From the IMG/VR virus record IMGVR_UViG_2563366946_000012: a DNA stretch of 37,467 nt. The stretch is one strand, 5' to 3'. Numbering within the stretch: the stretch's first letter is position 1; every line of letters starts with the position of its first letter. The stretch is from a virus (Duplodnaviria; Heunggongvirae; Uroviricota; Caudoviricetes). Below, piece after piece: positions 5,308-11,962 of this stretch. Below the pieces are notes generated by a model. The model had not been told where the DNA came from. It did not search any database and worked only from the letters and a program-made list of their open reading frames with translations. Both the position numbers and the translations under genes were made by a program.

Positions 5308-6188
5308 ACACTCCTCGTCAGTATTCTGGCGGCCATTGCACTTAATCCCGGAGACATGCGGTTGAATGCTGTGCCGGCGGCGTTAAGCTGCCCGGAAACG
5401 GTATCCAGAGCACCTGCAATATTTCTTTTGTCCACACCACTCAGCGCAGACTGTGCCTGCTGTACATACGTGGCTGCTTCGCTGGCTGTTCTGGCCAGAC
5501 TGATGGCATCGGGCATGGATTCAGAGAGTGCGTTAAACGCCGGAACACTTTTCCCCAGAGCCCCGGAGATATTACCCAGTCCGCTCATCAGCCCCGGCAC
5601 ACGGGTCAGTGCGACAACGGGGTTATCCTTCATTTTCTGTGTCACCCGAACGGCGCTGATAGTGGTCTGGAGTACAGACTGCGCCTGTTTCGCATAGTTG
5701 ACGCCGTTGCGGATGAACTGCGCCACCCCTGAAGGTGAAGGAATGGCACCGGAGACCGCCCCGACACCCGGGAGCTTCGTGCGTATTGCCGGTGGTTGCA
5801 GAGGATTTTTCGGGTCACCGGTGTATTCCCGGAGAGACACGGTGGCACTGACAGCCAGCACGTTGCCGGTACTGTCAGTCTGCTCGCTGGTTGCAGTCAC
5901 ATCGGTAATCACGAACCAGCCGCGATAGTCACCGTTGCCGAAGACCAGCGCCAGTGCCTGATGGGCTTTCATGGCTGTTCGCAGTCTCGCCAGCTCCACA
6001 TCGGGTACACAATAATGCTGATGGAAAACCAGAGTTATCTGGATTTCGTCCAGCCTGTCGCCGACGAATTGCAGGCCAGGCTTCCCCCCGATGCGGGCAT
6101 GCTCCGCATAATCGACGCCGAACGTGGCCTCGAAGCCGTCCCAGTAGGTAATCAGCTCAAACTCAATATCACCCAGTACGGCAAACAT
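5304..6188 (-). CDS. Tail protein (P2 gpU / Mu DNA-circulation N-like)
   Basis: 294-aa ORF directly downstream of the tape measure gene (start/stop abut at 6188); low-complexity Ala/Ser/Gly-rich C-terminal half. Confidence 0.45.
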   Translation of the reverse strand: MFAVLGDIEFELITYWDGFEATFGVDYAEHARIGGKPGLQFVGDRLDEIQITLVFHQHYCVPDVELARLRTAMKAHQALALVFGNGDYRGWFVITDVTATSEQTDSTGNVLAVSATVSLREYTGDPKNPLQPPAIRTKLPGVGAVSGAIPSPSGVAQFIRNGVNYAKQAQSVLQTTISAVRVTQKMKDNPVVALTRVPGLMSGLGNISGALGKSVPAFNALSESMPDAISLARTASEAATYVQQAQSALSGVDKRNIAGALDTVSGQLNAAGTAFNRMSPGLSAMAARILTRSV

Positions 6189-9139
6189 CAGCGGTACTCC
6201 TTACGTTGTTTCTGAGCCAGCAGACGCTCCAGCATTTTTTCCAGCTCATGCAGACTCATATTCAGGGCACCAGTCAGTCCTGCAGGCGCTGTGGTTTCCC
6301 TGCCATTGAGGAAAAACTGAGGATTAAAGCTGACCTGAATACCACCAGACGTTCCACCGCCGGTTGCAGCTGCACCACGGCCTGAATATCCGGCAGCCAG
6401 GATTTCAGACGAGGGGATACGGGGAACATCCGGTGTCATCTCATTTGCCAGACGTTGCCCTGGTAAAATCGATGCCCGGGTGGAGAGCGGAATAGCGGGC
6501 ATGGAAGACAAACTATTGATTACGGATCCGATCGCATTTTTAGCAGACGACATAAACCCGTTGATATCGGGCAACGGCATGCGGAAGTGAACATCTGAAG
6601 TGTTATCCCGTATTTCTGGCCCCTGAATGCTCACGGGCATTTTGGGGAGCAGTTCACTGGCCATTCGCTGACCGGCCAGAGCTGCAAGCGGAGTGCTCCG
6701 CTGCAGGCCAATGGCGGCCCCCTGCGCGATATTGTCACCAAAGCCCATAAACACGCGGCTCGGCGAATGAATGCCCAGCTTTTCGCTGAACCAGCCACTG
6801 ATGCTGTCGCCCATTCCGGTTACGCTGGTTTTGAGTGACTCCCATTTGTTTTTGATACCGTTAATCAGACCGTCGACAAGATGGCCACCGAAGTCGGTGA
6901 ACTTTGCCGGCAGCTCAACGCCGAGATATTTCAGCGCAGCTGCAAAGGCTTTATAGAGCAGACCTGCCGGCGACCAGTTAATCAGCAGCTTACCAGTTCC
7001 CACGATACCGCCGTTAAAGGCTTCCTGAATGTCAGCCCAGCGTTGTTTAAACCAGCTACTGATGCTGTCACCCATTCCGGTTACACTGGATTTGAGCGCC
7101 CCCCATTTGTTTTTGATACCGTTAATCAGACCGTCGATAAGATGGCCACCGAAGTCGGTGAACTTTGCCGGCAGAGCAACGCCGAAATATTTCAGCGCAG
7201 CCGCAAAGGCTTTATAGAGCAGGCCTGCCGGCGACCAGTTAATCAGCAACTTACCAATTCCCACAATGCCGCCGTTAAAGGCTTCCTGAATGTCAGCCCA
7301 GCGCTGTTTAAACCAGCCACTGACTGCCCCCCAGTTGCGGTAGATAAGGTAAGCTGCTGCCGCGACAGCGGTGATAACGAGACCGATGGGATTCATCATC
7401 AGCGCACGTCCAATCCAGAGAACAGCACGTCCGGCGAGCATAATTCCGCGAACCAGCCCCCCGGAGAGCACGCCACTCAGTGTTCTGGCTCCTCTGGCGA
7501 CGGCGCTAAATCCGGTCACCAGCCAGCGGAGCTTACCGCCTTGCCCCAGTGCGAGCGACAGACGAAGCCAGTTGGCCCGAAGTAAAACAGCATTTTTCCA
7601 GACACTTACAAAGGGGGAAATAAGGAGATTCAGCCCCAGTTTGAGACCAACAGTCGCTATCTTAATCGCAAGGAGCGCACTGATGAGCTTAAAAGCCCCA
7701 CTGACAAATTGCGGGTGAGTCGCTACCCAGTGTTTTGTCCCCTGAATGAGTGGGAGCAAGTCCTGAGTCAGAGAAATAAAAGATGGAGCTAATTGATCGC
7801 CCAGCGTAATTGCCAGATCGCGACTGCTGACCATAAGTGCTTTAGTGGCTTCAAGGGGAGATTTCAGCCGCTGATCATAAGCACTGGCAAGCAAATCGTT
7901 ATCCGCAGTCCTGAGAGCACCGGCGCGGATCTCGCGATATCTGTCCATGTTGGCCAGCATCGGGCGGATAAATGCCATGACCTGCATATCCGCGAACATA
8001 TCACCCAGACCAAAGTTTTTCGCCAGAGCCTGAAGTGCCTCATCTCTTGCCGTATCATTCTTTATTTTCATGGCGGATTTGAAGCCGGCCAGCGCTTCGG
8101 GGCTTTTGGCATTGAGGTAACGTTCTATAACACTCAACATCCCTTCAATCGGAGAGATCCCCGCAGCCTTATAACTCGCAATAGATCCCTGCAAATCAAT
8201 ACCCAGATCAGCAAACTGTTTCTGAGTATCGCGGGCAAAAATTTTGGTAAGAAAGTTTTTAAAATTATTGGCTGCCTCGTCGGTGGAACCTGCACCGATT
8301 TTTGCTATCTGGAGACTGGCCCCGATTTCAGCAACAGCCTCTTTTCCACTGGCAATACCCGCCATCATTGGGGCCAGGGACTGCATCCACTTGACCTGAT
8401 CCGGGATTTCAAATGACCCCTGGTCACCGGCATAAGCCATAATATTCTGAACGGCACCAAAATCTCTGGCCGCACCTTTCAGGGAGTTTTGCCAGACTGC
8501 GGCCACTTTTGCCCAGTCCTGAGCAGACGTGCGTGTTGCCGTTGCCGCGCGGGCAATATCCGGCATCAGAAAACCGATATCTGACACATTATCAATATTG
8601 TCGCTGATGAGTGAACCCACCGCCTCCTGCAGCTCATCCTGATACTGATTGTATTTAAGCGCCCAGCCTTTTATCTGTCCGGCAAGTGCATCCCGCGTTT
8701 TATTGTCATATTTTGCGGTGATCGACATATCAATCATTTTGTCCTGAAAAGACATGGACTGCTGAACGGCAGGGGAAACCGTATGATAAACAGTCTGTGC
8801 CATGCCATACGCTTCAATCCCCTGACCATACAGCGCCATGCGGTTAGCTTTCAGCGCATCACTGGTAGCGGATGCCGCTGACAGACGGCGCTGCTGGCGC
8901 ACAATTTGCTCCATGGTGCGGCTTACCCGCAGCAGCTCGCTGTTGAGATGCTGCATCCGGGAAGAACCCAGTTGACCATAACGTTCTGTTGCACGGGTTA
9001 AAGCGTTCTGACGTTCCTGCAGGCGGCGTGAGGTATCGCTCAGGGAATCAAGCGCACGGCGGGTACCGCTCATTGCAGAACGGAATGTGCTGCCAATCAT
9101 CCCGCCGATAACAACGCCGACTGAAAACTGTCCCGACAT
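6188..9139 (-). CDS. Tail tape measure protein
   Basis: 983-aa ORF, the longest in the tail module. Alpha-helical/coiled-coil N-terminus, hydrophobic central segments, internal repeats; lies downstream of the chaperone pair with a GGAGG RBS. Confidence 0.85.
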   Translation of the reverse strand: MSGQFSVGVVIGGMIGSTFRSAMSGTRRALDSLSDTSRRLQERQNALTRATERYGQLGSSRMQHLNSELLRVSRTMEQIVRQQRRLSAASATSDALKANRMALYGQGIEAYGMAQTVYHTVSPAVQQSMSFQDKMIDMSITAKYDNKTRDALAGQIKGWALKYNQYQDELQEAVGSLISDNIDNVSDIGFLMPDIARAATATRTSAQDWAKVAAVWQNSLKGAARDFGAVQNIMAYAGDQGSFEIPDQVKWMQSLAPMMAGIASGKEAVAEIGASLQIAKIGAGSTDEAANNFKNFLTKIFARDTQKQFADLGIDLQGSIASYKAAGISPIEGMLSVIERYLNAKSPEALAGFKSAMKIKNDTARDEALQALAKNFGLGDMFADMQVMAFIRPMLANMDRYREIRAGALRTADNDLLASAYDQRLKSPLEATKALMVSSRDLAITLGDQLAPSFISLTQDLLPLIQGTKHWVATHPQFVSGAFKLISALLAIKIATVGLKLGLNLLISPFVSVWKNAVLLRANWLRLSLALGQGGKLRWLVTGFSAVARGARTLSGVLSGGLVRGIMLAGRAVLWIGRALMMNPIGLVITAVAAAAYLIYRNWGAVSGWFKQRWADIQEAFNGGIVGIGKLLINWSPAGLLYKAFAAALKYFGVALPAKFTDFGGHLIDGLINGIKNKWGALKSSVTGMGDSISSWFKQRWADIQEAFNGGIVGTGKLLINWSPAGLLYKAFAAALKYLGVELPAKFTDFGGHLVDGLINGIKNKWESLKTSVTGMGDSISGWFSEKLGIHSPSRVFMGFGDNIAQGAAIGLQRSTPLAALAGQRMASELLPKMPVSIQGPEIRDNTSDVHFRMPLPDINGFMSSAKNAIGSVINSLSSMPAIPLSTRASILPGQRLANEMTPDVPRIPSSEILAAGYSGRGAAATGGGTSGGIQVSFNPQFFLNGRETTAPAGLTGALNMSLHELEKMLERLLAQKQRKEYR
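6770..7330. repeat. Tandem duplication of a 261-bp (87-aa) unit inside the tape measure gene (two full copies plus the start of a third)
   Basis: Units begin near 6789, 7050 and 7311; protein repeat SWFKQRWADIQEAFNGGIVG(I/T)GKLLINWSPAGLLYKAFAAALKY…GMGDSIS occurs twice in tandem. Confidence 0.85.
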
Positions 9140-9214: not shown

Positions 9215-9472
9215 CTATGATTTGTCGCCGTACTCGCTTTTGATTTGCTCTTCAGCCTGCTCCAGCCACATCTCCAGATCGTCAGTATCGAGGGCATCAA
9301 TCTCCCCCGGCTGAAACCGGAACCATCTCGCCAGCAGCCCCTGCGCCTGCGTCAGCGCCCTGGTTGCTCTCACCCATCCCCGTGATGAGCTGAAATCGTT
9401 TCTGTAACTGCAGGTAATCAGCCAGATCCATATTGTCGAGATCTTCCGGGAGAAGACCAGTACTGCGGGCAA
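9215..9472 (-). CDS. Overlapping alternative-frame ORF, candidate frameshift extension of the tail chaperone (E'-like)
   Basis: 85-aa ORF in a different frame overlapping the 3' half of the chaperone and ending just upstream of the tape measure start; acidic protein-like C-terminal sequence (…FQPGEIDALDTDDLEMWLEQAEEQIKSEYGDKS). Confidence 0.4.
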   Translation of the reverse strand: MPAVLVFSRKISTIWIWLITCSYRNDFSSSRGWVRATRALTQAQGLLARWFRFQPGEIDALDTDDLEMWLEQAEEQIKSEYGDKS

Positions 9473-9632
9473 TCAGCGGTTCGTCCCAGTCTGCCGGGTT
9501 TTTGCTGATTTTGCGCACCTGCTTCAGGTCTTTTACCGTCAGGCGTTTCAGTTCAACCTGCTCAATTCTGGTGCCTGCAGCAGTGGTGAAGGGATAAGAC
9601 AATTTAAAAGTATCGGATGGGGTCTGTGACAT
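9297..9632 (-). CDS. Tail assembly chaperone (P2 gpE / Mu gp41-like)
   Basis: 111-aa ORF between tube and tape measure; contains …LLPEDLDNMDLADYLQLQKRF…, resembling gpE-type chaperones. Confidence 0.55.
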   Translation of the reverse strand: MSQTPSDTFKLSYPFTTAAGTRIEQVELKRLTVKDLKQVRKISKNPADWDEPLIARSTGLLPEDLDNMDLADYLQLQKRFQLITGMGESNQGADAGAGAAGEMVPVSAGGD

Positions 9633-9729
9633 GATTGTGCTCCTGTGTAAGTTCAGGGCAGTATGTCGGGAGAAGCGCGTGACGGATATTAAAGGAGATT
9701 AAGAAGAAGGGGCCGGAGCCCCTGTGATG

Positions 9730-10011
9730 TCAGCAAGTGCGAAACCCCTTGCAGTTACGCAGGAAAGCGATGAGAAGCGTCTTTCCCTCAGATTTGCCGG
9801 TGCCGGAGAACCAGTGGTCGGGAGGCTCCCATGCTTCAATCAAATCCGCCAGTTTGCGGGCCTTTGAACGTGTGCAGTCAATCGGGTCATTGGTTTTACG
9901 GGTATTAAAAAGGGTTTCCACCCCCGGAATATCAAGGAGGGTAAACCACGTACCATTTGACATGCCCAGTGCCGCACATCGTCCTCCTTTATCCGTCAGT
10001 TCAACACTCAC
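9730..10011 (-). CDS. Hypothetical small protein between tube and chaperone genes
   Basis: 93-aa ORF starting 3 nt after the tube gene stop; followed by a GC-rich hairpin near 9695-9715. No recognisable family. Confidence 0.3.
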   Translation of the reverse strand: MSVELTDKGGRCAALGMSNGTWFTLLDIPGVETLFNTRKTNDPIDCTRSKARKLADLIEAWEPPDHWFSGTGKSEGKTLLIAFLRNCKGFRTC

Positions 10012-10013
10012 CG

Positions 10014-10535
10014 TCAGCCCCCGATATTGATACGGTAGTCAGTCAGTTGATCAACACCGCCGACCCGGAAGATGTTGGCCAGATAGTCCAGTTGCAGCAG
10101 CTCTTCACCATCCAGTACCTGTCTGATATACGTGCAGGTGAAGCTACTGGAGAACTCGGCGTTCTCGTGCTGTTTGAACGTCCCCAGCGGGTTCTTCTTG
10201 AACATAATCGTCAGGAAGGTGACCAGCGGGATTTCGTCAATCAGCCCCTGCGAGCTGTAGCGCTGGACGCTGGAACGACACTGCAGTGCCAGCGACCTGT
10301 ACGGGTTCGCGGCTGACAGCATCGCATCGCGGTAAAAGCTGTTCCATTTGATTTCGCCTTCCAGTTTGTCAAAACCAGCCGGGAGTTCCACCTTACCCAC
10401 CATCCCCAGCGCCTTGTGTTCCTGCATAATCATGGAGACATCGGGGAGTTTAACTTCCTCAGCCCGTCCCAGCAGGTTAGTACCATCCAGATAGATGTTG
10501 GCATTCGTGATGCGGTTTATCTCAATCTTTGACAT
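10014..10535 (-). CDS. Tail tube protein
   Basis: 173-aa ORF immediately downstream of the sheath gene (overlapping stop/start); size and position typical of contractile-tail tube proteins. Confidence 0.75.
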   Translation of the reverse strand: MSKIEINRITNANIYLDGTNLLGRAEEVKLPDVSMIMQEHKALGMVGKVELPAGFDKLEGEIKWNSFYRDAMLSAANPYRSLALQCRSSVQRYSSQGLIDEIPLVTFLTIMFKKNPLGTFKQHENAEFSSSFTCTYIRQVLDGEELLQLDYLANIFRVGGVDQLTDYRINIGG

Positions 10536-11962
10536 CAGTTGCCCCCTTTCAGGGTTAACAGGTATTCCGAGGTGATCTCAGTCTCAAACGTCAGTCGCTC
10601 CAGCGGCGGCGGTGGCGTATATTTGTAACTCAGCAACAGGTGCCCGGCGGCCAGCTCCGTCTCCGGATTGCGGGCCGGATCAAACCAGCAACGGAAGCCC
10701 AGTACCGCACCATCACCAGTCATTTTGCGACCGTAGGCGTTGACCGACTCCGTCAGTGCATCAATCAGCGCCTGAGTAATCGGCATGTCGATGTACTGCT
10801 GGCTGAAATAACGAATGGACTCGTTGATCACATCACCGGTGCGGCGAACGTTCTCAAAGTTACGCATATGGGTGACCGTTGGCCATGCTGCCGTCCGGTT
10901 ACCCCACAGACGAAGGCCGCTGCCGTAACTGCTGAATACCGTGGTGATCCCCTGTTCGTTAAGCAGGTTCACCTCACTCTGCGGGTCATCAATCATCGCG
11001 GACAGCTGGCGCTCCACGCCGGTGATCCCCAGAATCTCCTGATTGGAGGATGACCACCAGTAGCCCTTGTCCAGATCGACTCTGGCACGCAGACCTGCTG
11101 CACGCTGGCTGAGCGGCTCCAGACGCTCTGTGTTTGTCACCGGGTCATATACCTTCACATGCGGATAGCACAGACGGACGCGGTCGGAGCTGGTATTGAA
11201 GTTGATGGTGCCTTCCGGGCCACGACCTGCCAGAGCCTGTGCAAAGGTGGTACCGACAGGCGCATCAATGTAGGTTACCGCGCCCAGCTTCTCTGCCATG
11301 GCGATAAGCTCAACTGCGACACTCTTCTGGGTGCAGAACACCGGCGCAATCAGAATTTTGGCGAAATAGCCGTACAGGTTGAAGCTGTCGTTAAGCAGCT
11401 TCATGCCGGTTCGGTTTCCGGCGCTGTTCACCCCGCCGATGATGTCCGCCGCAGTCACCTTCGACGGGTCCGCGTACTCATAGCTCACCTTCACGCTGCC
11501 ATCGGCCTCAATAGCCTTGCCCAGGTTCGTGAGCACACCCGCCTGCGCATCAACACGGTAGTCCGTGTTCGCCGTGTGGGTGGTGCTGCCTTCACTGTTT
11601 TTCACCACCACATTAGCGACAACCGGATGCGCCAGTCTGGCCTGCCCTGTCGATTTGTCAAAGGTAACCACCTCATCCTCGATCGCCGTTTTATGTTTCG
11701 CCGGGTCGAGGACGTTAATGACCAGAACGGTGCCTGCACCATGGTCATAAATCGCATCCAGCGCCTGCGGAATGGTAAAGCCGGTGAACTGGCTGCCAAA
11801 TGCCGCTGCGTCTTTCTCAGACAGGCACTGTACCAGCGTATTGACATCCCCCATCGGGGCGGTACCAATCAGGCCAATAACGGCAGATTTCACCGTTTTA
11901 ACCGGGCGGGCTCCGTTTTCCACCTCAATGGTTTCGACGCCATGCAGATAGTTAGCTGCCAT
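10535..11962 (-). CDS. Tail sheath protein
   Basis: 475-aa ORF preceding the tube gene; typical sheath size and order. Confidence 0.8.
   Translation of the reverse strand: MAANYLHGVETIEVENGARPVKTVKSAVIGLIGTAPMGDVNTLVQCLSEKDAAAFGSQFTGFTIPQALDAIYDHGAGTVLVINVLDPAKHKTAIEDEVVTFDKSTGQARLAHPVVANVVVKNSEGSTTHTANTDYRVDAQAGVLTNLGKAIEADGSVKVSYEYADPSKVTAADIIGGVNSAGNRTGMKLLNDSFNLYGYFAKILIAPVFCTQKSVAVELIAMAEKLGAVTYIDAPVGTTFAQALAGRGPEGTINFNTSSDRVRLCYPHVKVYDPVTNTERLEPLSQRAAGLRARVDLDKGYWWSSSNQEILGITGVERQLSAMIDDPQSEVNLLNEQGITTVFSSYGSGLRLWGNRTAAWPTVTHMRNFENVRRTGDVINESIRYFSQQYIDMPITQALIDALTESVNAYGRKMTGDGAVLGFRCWFDPARNPETELAAGHLLLSYKYTPPPPLERLTFETEITSEYLLTLKGGN

Follow-up and report, generated by a model that had tools for sequence, protein, structure and literature searches.

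The window analysed here, a stretch of 37,467 nucleotides of viral DNA, is a BcepMu-like transposable prophage, and the region described below is 99.7% identical to Escherichia phage PhiKM (genus Bcepmuvirus). Its contractile tail module is encoded on the minus strand in the order sheath, tube, small ORF, chaperone and tape measure. The sheath gene (10535..11962, PF04984/PF17482) is followed by that of the FII-like tail tube (10014..10535, PF04985, E=2.9e-53), which forms the upstream context, by a small ORF of 93 aa with only a weak DUF7739 match (9730..10011), by the gpE-like chaperone, the short product of the locus (9297..9632, PF10109, E=3.5e-22) and, as downstream context, by the tape measure gene (6188..9139, PF10145, E=2e-20). 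Chaperone frameshifting between tube and tape measure genes is textbook knowledge, and a previous interpretation made from the letters alone (hereafter, the sequence-only reading) had placed a chaperone/extension pair between these two genes. This placement was borne out, with the extra small ORF preceding the chaperone.

The slot of this small ORF holds a different gene in some relatives (PF13876 in L107) and is empty in others (L109); the position between tube and chaperone resembles a slot for variable cargo within the tail operon. Between the small ORF and the chaperone start stands a GC-rich terminator-like hairpin followed by a T-rich tail (9708-9723, minus strand; AGGGGCTCCGGCCCCT TCTTCTTAAT), which might attenuate transcription into the chaperone and tape measure genes. 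Inside the tape measure gene, a 261-bp unit is present in 2.0 copies with 93% identity (6789-7323, minus strand) and doubles a protein segment of ~87 aa (WFKQRWADIQEAFNGGIVG...). The duplication may lengthen the tail, and the repeat probably accounts for the "sequencing gap" at which the tape measure gene is broken up in the PhiKM record.

Both of the overlapping minus-strand ORFs claimed by the sequence-only reading were found, 9297..9632 (111 aa, ATG start) and 9215..9472 (85 aa, TTG start). The downstream ORF had been assigned to the +1 frame of the chaperone, and this was correct: the starts are 160 nucleotides apart (9632-9472 = 160; 160 mod 3 = 1), which places 9215..9472 in the +1 (equivalently -2) frame relative to 9297..9632, in agreement with the three-frame translation. 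The -1 frame, said to remain open for about 36 codons past the chaperone stop, does so for about 33-36 codons. The chaperone scored 78.7 bits against PF10109 (Phage_TAC_7; cut-off 25) over residues 8-81, and the same family was matched in all 13 diverse relatives tested. Its 0-frame tail beyond F80 is of low complexity and unconserved, and in relatives the 0-frame stop drifts from +9 to +36 codons after the F80 codon TTT. In the window this stop is TGA 9299-9297, and the sequence predicted without fusion, read in frame 0 only, is FQLITGMGESNQGADAGAGAAGEMVPVSAGGD.

An 85-codon ORF in an alternative frame is unremarkable per se, as there are many such in the ORF list of the window. The +1 ORF is nevertheless beyond chance, because the extension is conserved, occupies the +1 frame at 81 of the 83 related loci, BcepMu included, and is more conserved than the chaperone itself. 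These 83 loci comprise IMG/VR contigs, isolated phages and BcepMu (marker peptide FQPGEIDALD...). The two loci that depart from the +1 frame, L077 and L082, both carry single-base deletions (GGGG for GGGGG in L082). At loci whose chaperones are 67-86% identical, identity of the extension stays at 93-97%; across the enteric loci it is 93-100%. The +1 offset is common to elements of Escherichia, Salmonella, Klebsiella, Xenorhabdus, Brenneria, Ralstonia, Burkholderia and Pseudomonas, and among isolated phages it is present in PhiKM, KP12, BcepMu, phiE255 and Bise.

Lineages differ by changes that are synonymous in the +1 frame only and that disrupt frame 0, as seen for CGG->AGA (Arg) and for GGG/GGC/GGT/GGA (Gly). 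For example, TTC CGG TTT and TTT AGA TTT both read F-R-F in +1, with the second variant creating a 0-frame TAG. Two IMG/VR loci (L021 and L022) have a 0-frame CAG->TAG change at chaperone codon 91 that is synonymous in +1 (ACC->ACT), and this nonsense change suggests that the 0-frame tail is dispensable. Upstream of TTT, the ratio of synonymous to non-synonymous differences in frame 0 was 816/339 in pairwise counts that are not phylogenetically independent. Between nt +37 and +96, counts of the same pairwise, phylogenetically non-independent kind gave 217/128 in +1 vs 43/265 in frame 0. Positional entropy agreed with a change of frame at the same place, peaking at 0-frame codon position 3 upstream of TTT and, from TTT on, at position 1, which is the +1 wobble position; the same phase flip was observed in the BcepMu lineage. 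As judged from these patterns, purifying selection clearly acts in the +1 frame. The -1 frame had the worst synonymous/non-synonymous ratio everywhere. Hence, to the question of the true extension frame, which the sequence-only reading had left to be checked, the answer is +1; the open -1 frame is accidental, lacking a coding signature and closing at differing points in relatives.

The extension in the window weakly matched PF06528 (P2 GpE) with 17-18 bits (E=0.0016-0.004), below the 23-bit cut-off, and the family was matched in 8 of 13 diverse relatives (best E=7.7e-5). When a profile of 13 reconstructed fusions was compared with P2 E+E' by hhalign, both domains were aligned (probability 89%, E=2.3e-6); a search of PDB sequences with the family profile gave no match. 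On comparative grounds, the +1 ORF is truly coding, as an extension of the chaperone that is probably related to P2 E'. The E'-like extension would span 9215..9391 (minus strand), with 58 codons plus the stop TAG 9217-9215, and would read SSSRGWVRATRALTQAQGLLARWFRFQPGEIDALDTDDLEMWLEQAEEQIKSEYGDKS. The predicted fusion, of the E+E' type (9215..9632, minus strand), would have 138 aa, composed of residues 1-80 in frame 0 and 58 residues in frame +1, with a mass of ~15.6 kDa, the junction ...LQKRF-SSSRGWVR... and the domains PF10109 (8-82) and PF06528 (100-132).

We have located the frame switch by mapping stop codons across the relatives, which confined a common site to the interval from codon -3 through codon +9 around the F80 TTT. 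In this permissive zone, an in-frame TTT followed by C was the sole element common to all lineages. The proposed +1 recoding site of the window is therefore CGA_UUU_C (9392..9398, minus strand), with CGA at 9398-9396, TTT at 9395-9393 (codon F80) and C at 9392. CGATTTC (9398-9392) was invariant in 62 unique enteric sequences, while only 1 of 47 degenerate wobble positions was invariant in the 49 codons upstream. CGA is rare in the genes of this phage (7 of 182 Arg codons). TTT_C was also found in every +1-type Burkholderia, Pseudomonas and Ralstonia relative examined, including Pseudomonas phage Bise and its relatives. The 13 unique sequences of the BcepMu lineage keep TTT_C, and their flanking codons vary synonymously (TCC/TCT/GCC, CGC/CGT). 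In that lineage, the +1 codon directly after UUC is Ala, written as GCA, GCC, GCG or GCT, with the overlapping 0-frame codon encoding S, L, R, G, C or D. The CGA context is kept only in the enteric and Ralstonia sequences, with UCC, GCC, GCA, GCG or AAA in other lineages.

In the enterics, the first ~11 codons past the site showed only a weak +1 preference (138/249 vs 90/305, again pairwise and not phylogenetically independent); what pins down the enteric site is chiefly the limits set by stop codons and the invariance of the motif. The proposed shift site coincides with the C-terminal limit of PF10109, and about 3 profile positions at most separate it from T_TTT_TTG, the experimentally known -1 site of P2, which is also annotated in RefSeq. 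A Pasteurella phage relative with the same two domains joins them in the -1 frame at A_AAG and has Leu where the +1-type members have Phe; because of this Leu, the invariant TTT is best explained by recoding rather than by a protein requirement. The comparisons establish the frame of the extension and its conservation, place the switch with a precision of a few codons, and support homology with P2 E'. The frameshift that the sequence-only reading proposed for the overlap was supported, at a probable site that is not in the last part of the overlap, by the chaperone stop and G-run, but ~31 codons upstream of the stop, at 9398-9392. Across homologs, both a slippery site and a conserved extension were present.

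By analogy with Mu, the G-run was the intuitive alternative. This GGGGG (9304..9308, minus strand; GCC_GGG_GGA) lies two codons before the chaperone stop, and a -2 shift there as in Mu, or a +1 slip of tRNAGly, would give products reading ...EMVPVSAG(G)EIDALDTDDLEMWLEQAEEQIK / ...VSAG(G)EIDALD.... In the window, frame 0 passes through the run and stops two codons later, which is the classic layout; the run resembles the Mu -2 site CGG_GGG_CGA (PMC5009743), and database proteins as well as L077 carry in-frame fusions with exactly this junction. However, a 0-frame TAG precedes the run in most (enteric) relatives, and for this reason we have rejected it as the slip site of the family. Frame 0 also ends 15-25 codons earlier in L107, L109, L110 and Bise, and 9-15 codons after F80 in Salmonella, Citrobacter and Pseudomonas relatives, and BcepMu has no G-run at the equivalent position. 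Moreover, +1-frame conservation begins ~28 codons upstream of the run, and a shift at the run would leave unexplained the strict +1 conservation, with synonymous variation, of GW...AQGLLARWFRFQP before it. The in-frame database fusions, for their part, have many different junctions, as expected of random indels. Altogether, we consider a shift at the G-run improbable. Quite improbable, too, is that the +1 ORF is a separate E'-only gene, translated independently from TTG 9472, GTG 9373 or, in relatives, an internal ATG. The TTG start does figure in the ORF list of the window, some relatives have an ATG at +1 codon 12-17, and phiE255 and BcepMu have a small CDS annotated separately at the equivalent place; yet the start codons vary in type and position among relatives, with no consistent Shine-Dalgarno sequence, and most candidate starts come too late to include conserved +1 residues such as W86. 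The open stretch of the +1 frame in L087 begins no more than 3 codons ahead of TTT, and the P2 homolog, organised in the same two domains, has been proven to be a fusion.

A decayed gene or chance ORF without a functional long product, for instance from a fixed frameshift in a defective prophage, could draw on the many spurious alternative-frame ORFs of the window and on obvious indels at L077, L082, L098 and L106. It is very improbable in view of the same +1 offset across elements of the genera listed above, isolated phages included, and of the purifying selection apparent in that frame. A canonical shift into the -1 frame, whose product would contain ...MPSILTIWRCGWSR..., would follow the usual direction, the one used by P2 and the Pasteurella relative, and that frame is open past the chaperone stop as described above. 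Nonetheless, no X_XXY_YYZ slippery heptamer was found in the overlap after codon 54, -1-frame stops occur 8 and 14 codons after TTT, the synonymous ratio is worst in this frame, and its peptide was seen only in indel-derived database proteins. Hence, we regard this last explanation as extremely improbable.

Several other candidates were tried and set aside. In a second GGG_G (9341-9338), any of the four bases (G/C/T/A) is found in the last place, a synonymous position in +1, and L107, L109, L110 and Bise stop before it. A -2 event at UUU_C is implausible, with no tRNA able to re-pair two bases back, and transcriptional slippage on T3 is likewise implausible. The in-frame fusion proteins of the protein database (P0001-P0009, P0064 and others) have scattered junctions, most often at the G-run, and look like indel or assembly artefacts or prophage decay, not like natural fusions. 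The GGGGG run and its flank showed recurrent 1-nt deletions in public sequences (L077, L082, L098; P0002-P0005, P0007, P0008). Through these deletions, either frame 0 becomes joined to the final part of the extension or the +1 extension is interrupted; the deletions may be errors of assembly or genuine inactivating mutations of prophages undergoing decay.

Recoding that joins the chaperone to the downstream extension, as put forward in the sequence-only reading, is strongly supported by the comparative evidence. Our favoured reading, which we hold to be probable, is that two proteins would be made from one chaperone start, the long one by a +1 shift at CGA_UUU_C that appends the E'-like extension. 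From sequence data, we infer that ribosomal +1 slippage on UUU_C causes the frame switch. UUU-pyrimidine sites are reportedly prone to +1 slippage in E. coli. Most ribosomes would translate frame 0 up to TGA 9299-9297 and yield the 111-aa chaperone, and a minority would shift into +1 at CGA_UUU_C (9398-9392). Either the peptidyl-tRNAPhe would re-pair from UUU to the overlapping UUC, with tRNAPhe decoding UUU as well as UUC, or Phe-tRNA would bind UUC out of frame; both routes would give the same protein. The shifted ribosomes would then read AGC UCA UCA CGG GGA UGG... up to TAG 9217-9215 and produce the 138-aa fusion. By analogy with lambda G/GT and P2 E/E+E' (PMC5009743, PMC3091744), the shared N-terminal domain would coat the tape measure protein, the extension would recruit tube subunits, and the short and long chaperones would both be absent from the virion. 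That the invariant CGA acts via a weak I:A wobble in the neighbouring site is speculation.

The proposed site appears poor in stimulators. The sequence-only reading had pointed to downstream structure as a feature to look for, and none was conserved. The RNA downstream of the site had an MFE z-score of -0.95, and RNAalifold returned weak structures with essentially no covariation for the enteric and BcepMu sets. There was no slow A-site codon after TTT, the next 0-frame codon being CAG, CAA or CGC (CAG in the window), and no upstream SD-like stimulator was found at the site. Ten structural genes of the window contain 10 in-frame copies of UUU_C and one of CGA_TTT_C. Given these 10 in-frame occurrences of such a minimal site, UUU_C alone should give low-level shifting only. 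RNAalifold also paired CGAUUUC (9392-9398) with GAGAUUG (9298-9304), ~90 nt downstream, through 7 bp of which 2 are G-U; this long-range pairing shows no covariation and is probably coincidental. In the BcepMu lineage (L117-L130), the 24 nt 3' of TTT_C, CGC-NNC-ATGGTTGAGGGACGGGAT, are conserved at all three codon positions, with a mean entropy of 0.25-0.33, which could reflect dual coding or an unrecognised frameshift stimulator.

Of 5,426 complete E. coli genomes, 641 carried the prophage. Among the 11 full-length E. coli matches listed, the region is annotated as "phage tail assembly protein" only, and the records of PhiKM, KP12 and phiE255 are without the fusion. In the BcepMu RefSeq record, the +1 extension is "gp42", with slippage proposed into "gp43". 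The gp43 ORF (L003 1619-2124) is antisense to a small membrane-protein gene annotated in phiE255 (L086 1176-1537), and for this reason the gp42/gp43 assignment is probably wrong. L107-L111 have the same opposite-strand gene, of 86-99 aa, after E' and before the tape measure gene; the window lacks it and leaves a gap of just 75 nt there. That chaperones of different phages use -1, -2 or +1 shifts has already been noted in the review literature (PMC5009743). In the records and literature searched, which did not extend to Xu et al. 2004, Summer et al. 2004 and Schwartz & Curran 1997, we found no description of a +1 shift in BcepMu-like chaperones. What appears to be new is the assignment for this P2-E/E'-related, BcepMu-like group, the +1 direction and the specific conserved site. 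As an annotation rule, a PF10109 ORF with an in-frame TTT_C at the domain end and PF06528 following in +1 would bring back a presumably essential tail protein throughout this group of phages. The family also offers a natural, apparently stimulator-poor +1 site, and a means of comparing -1 and +1 solutions at equivalent positions.

The closest known system is P2 gpE/gpE+E' of the FETUD operon, which uses -1 programmed ribosomal frameshifting at T_TTT_TTG (Christie et al. 2002, as reported in PMC3091744). The two have in common a gene position flanked by tube (FII) and tape measure (T), nearly the same fusion length (138 aa predicted in the window, 142 aa in P2), a shift, proposed in the case of the window, on a Phe TTT codon where PF10109 ends, and no downstream stimulatory structure. 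P2 E+E' combines PF10109 and PF06528 (residues 7-85 and 104-139), and the fusion of the window would probably have this layout too. They differ in that P2 shifts by -1 at a heptamer, 6 codons before the 0-frame stop, whereas the window would shift by +1 at UUU_C (CGA_UUU_C), 31 codons before it, and in that the PF06528 score of the window itself is below the Pfam cut-off. Mu gp41, which is made with a -2 frameshift (Xu, Hendrix & Duda 2004, as covered in PMC5009743), is likewise from a contractile-tailed transposable phage and has its chaperone extension in the +1/-2 frame. Mu gp41 is weak on PF10109 (24.7 bits, just under the 25-bit cut-off), and its G-run site CGG_GGG_CGA is near the 3' end of a PF23746 protein, a family with no match in the chaperone of the window, whose own G-run (9308-9304) is behind the 0-frame stop in most relatives.

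With lambda gpG/gpGT, the window shares the predicted scheme of two proteins with a common N-terminus, a fixed ratio and low-level recoding, located between the major tail gene and the tape measure gene (PMC5009743). In contrast to the window, lambda shifts by -1 on G_GGA_AAG, has a non-contractile tail and shows no detectable sequence similarity. As regards the slippage itself, the UUU-pyrimidine sites of E. coli (argI), the subject of Schwartz & Curran 1997 as cited in PMC3789692, and prfB CUU_UGA are similar in that a single P-site tRNA re-pairs one base forward, and in the window the UUU->UUC re-pairing would keep full complementarity. Those cases differ in being error-level or in relying on a slow or stop A-site codon with an upstream SD, neither of which is visible in the window. 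A wider reading, which we put forward tentatively and consider rather doubtful, and which if true would describe a compact, structure-free bacterial +1 cassette undescribed in the literature searched, is that, within one homologous chaperone family, the recoding site has been kept on the domain-boundary Phe codon while its direction has switched between -1 (T_TTT_TTG, P2-like) and +1 (UUU_C, BcepMu-like), with the invariant, rare CGA codon, decoded via an I:A wobble, stimulating the shift in the enterics.
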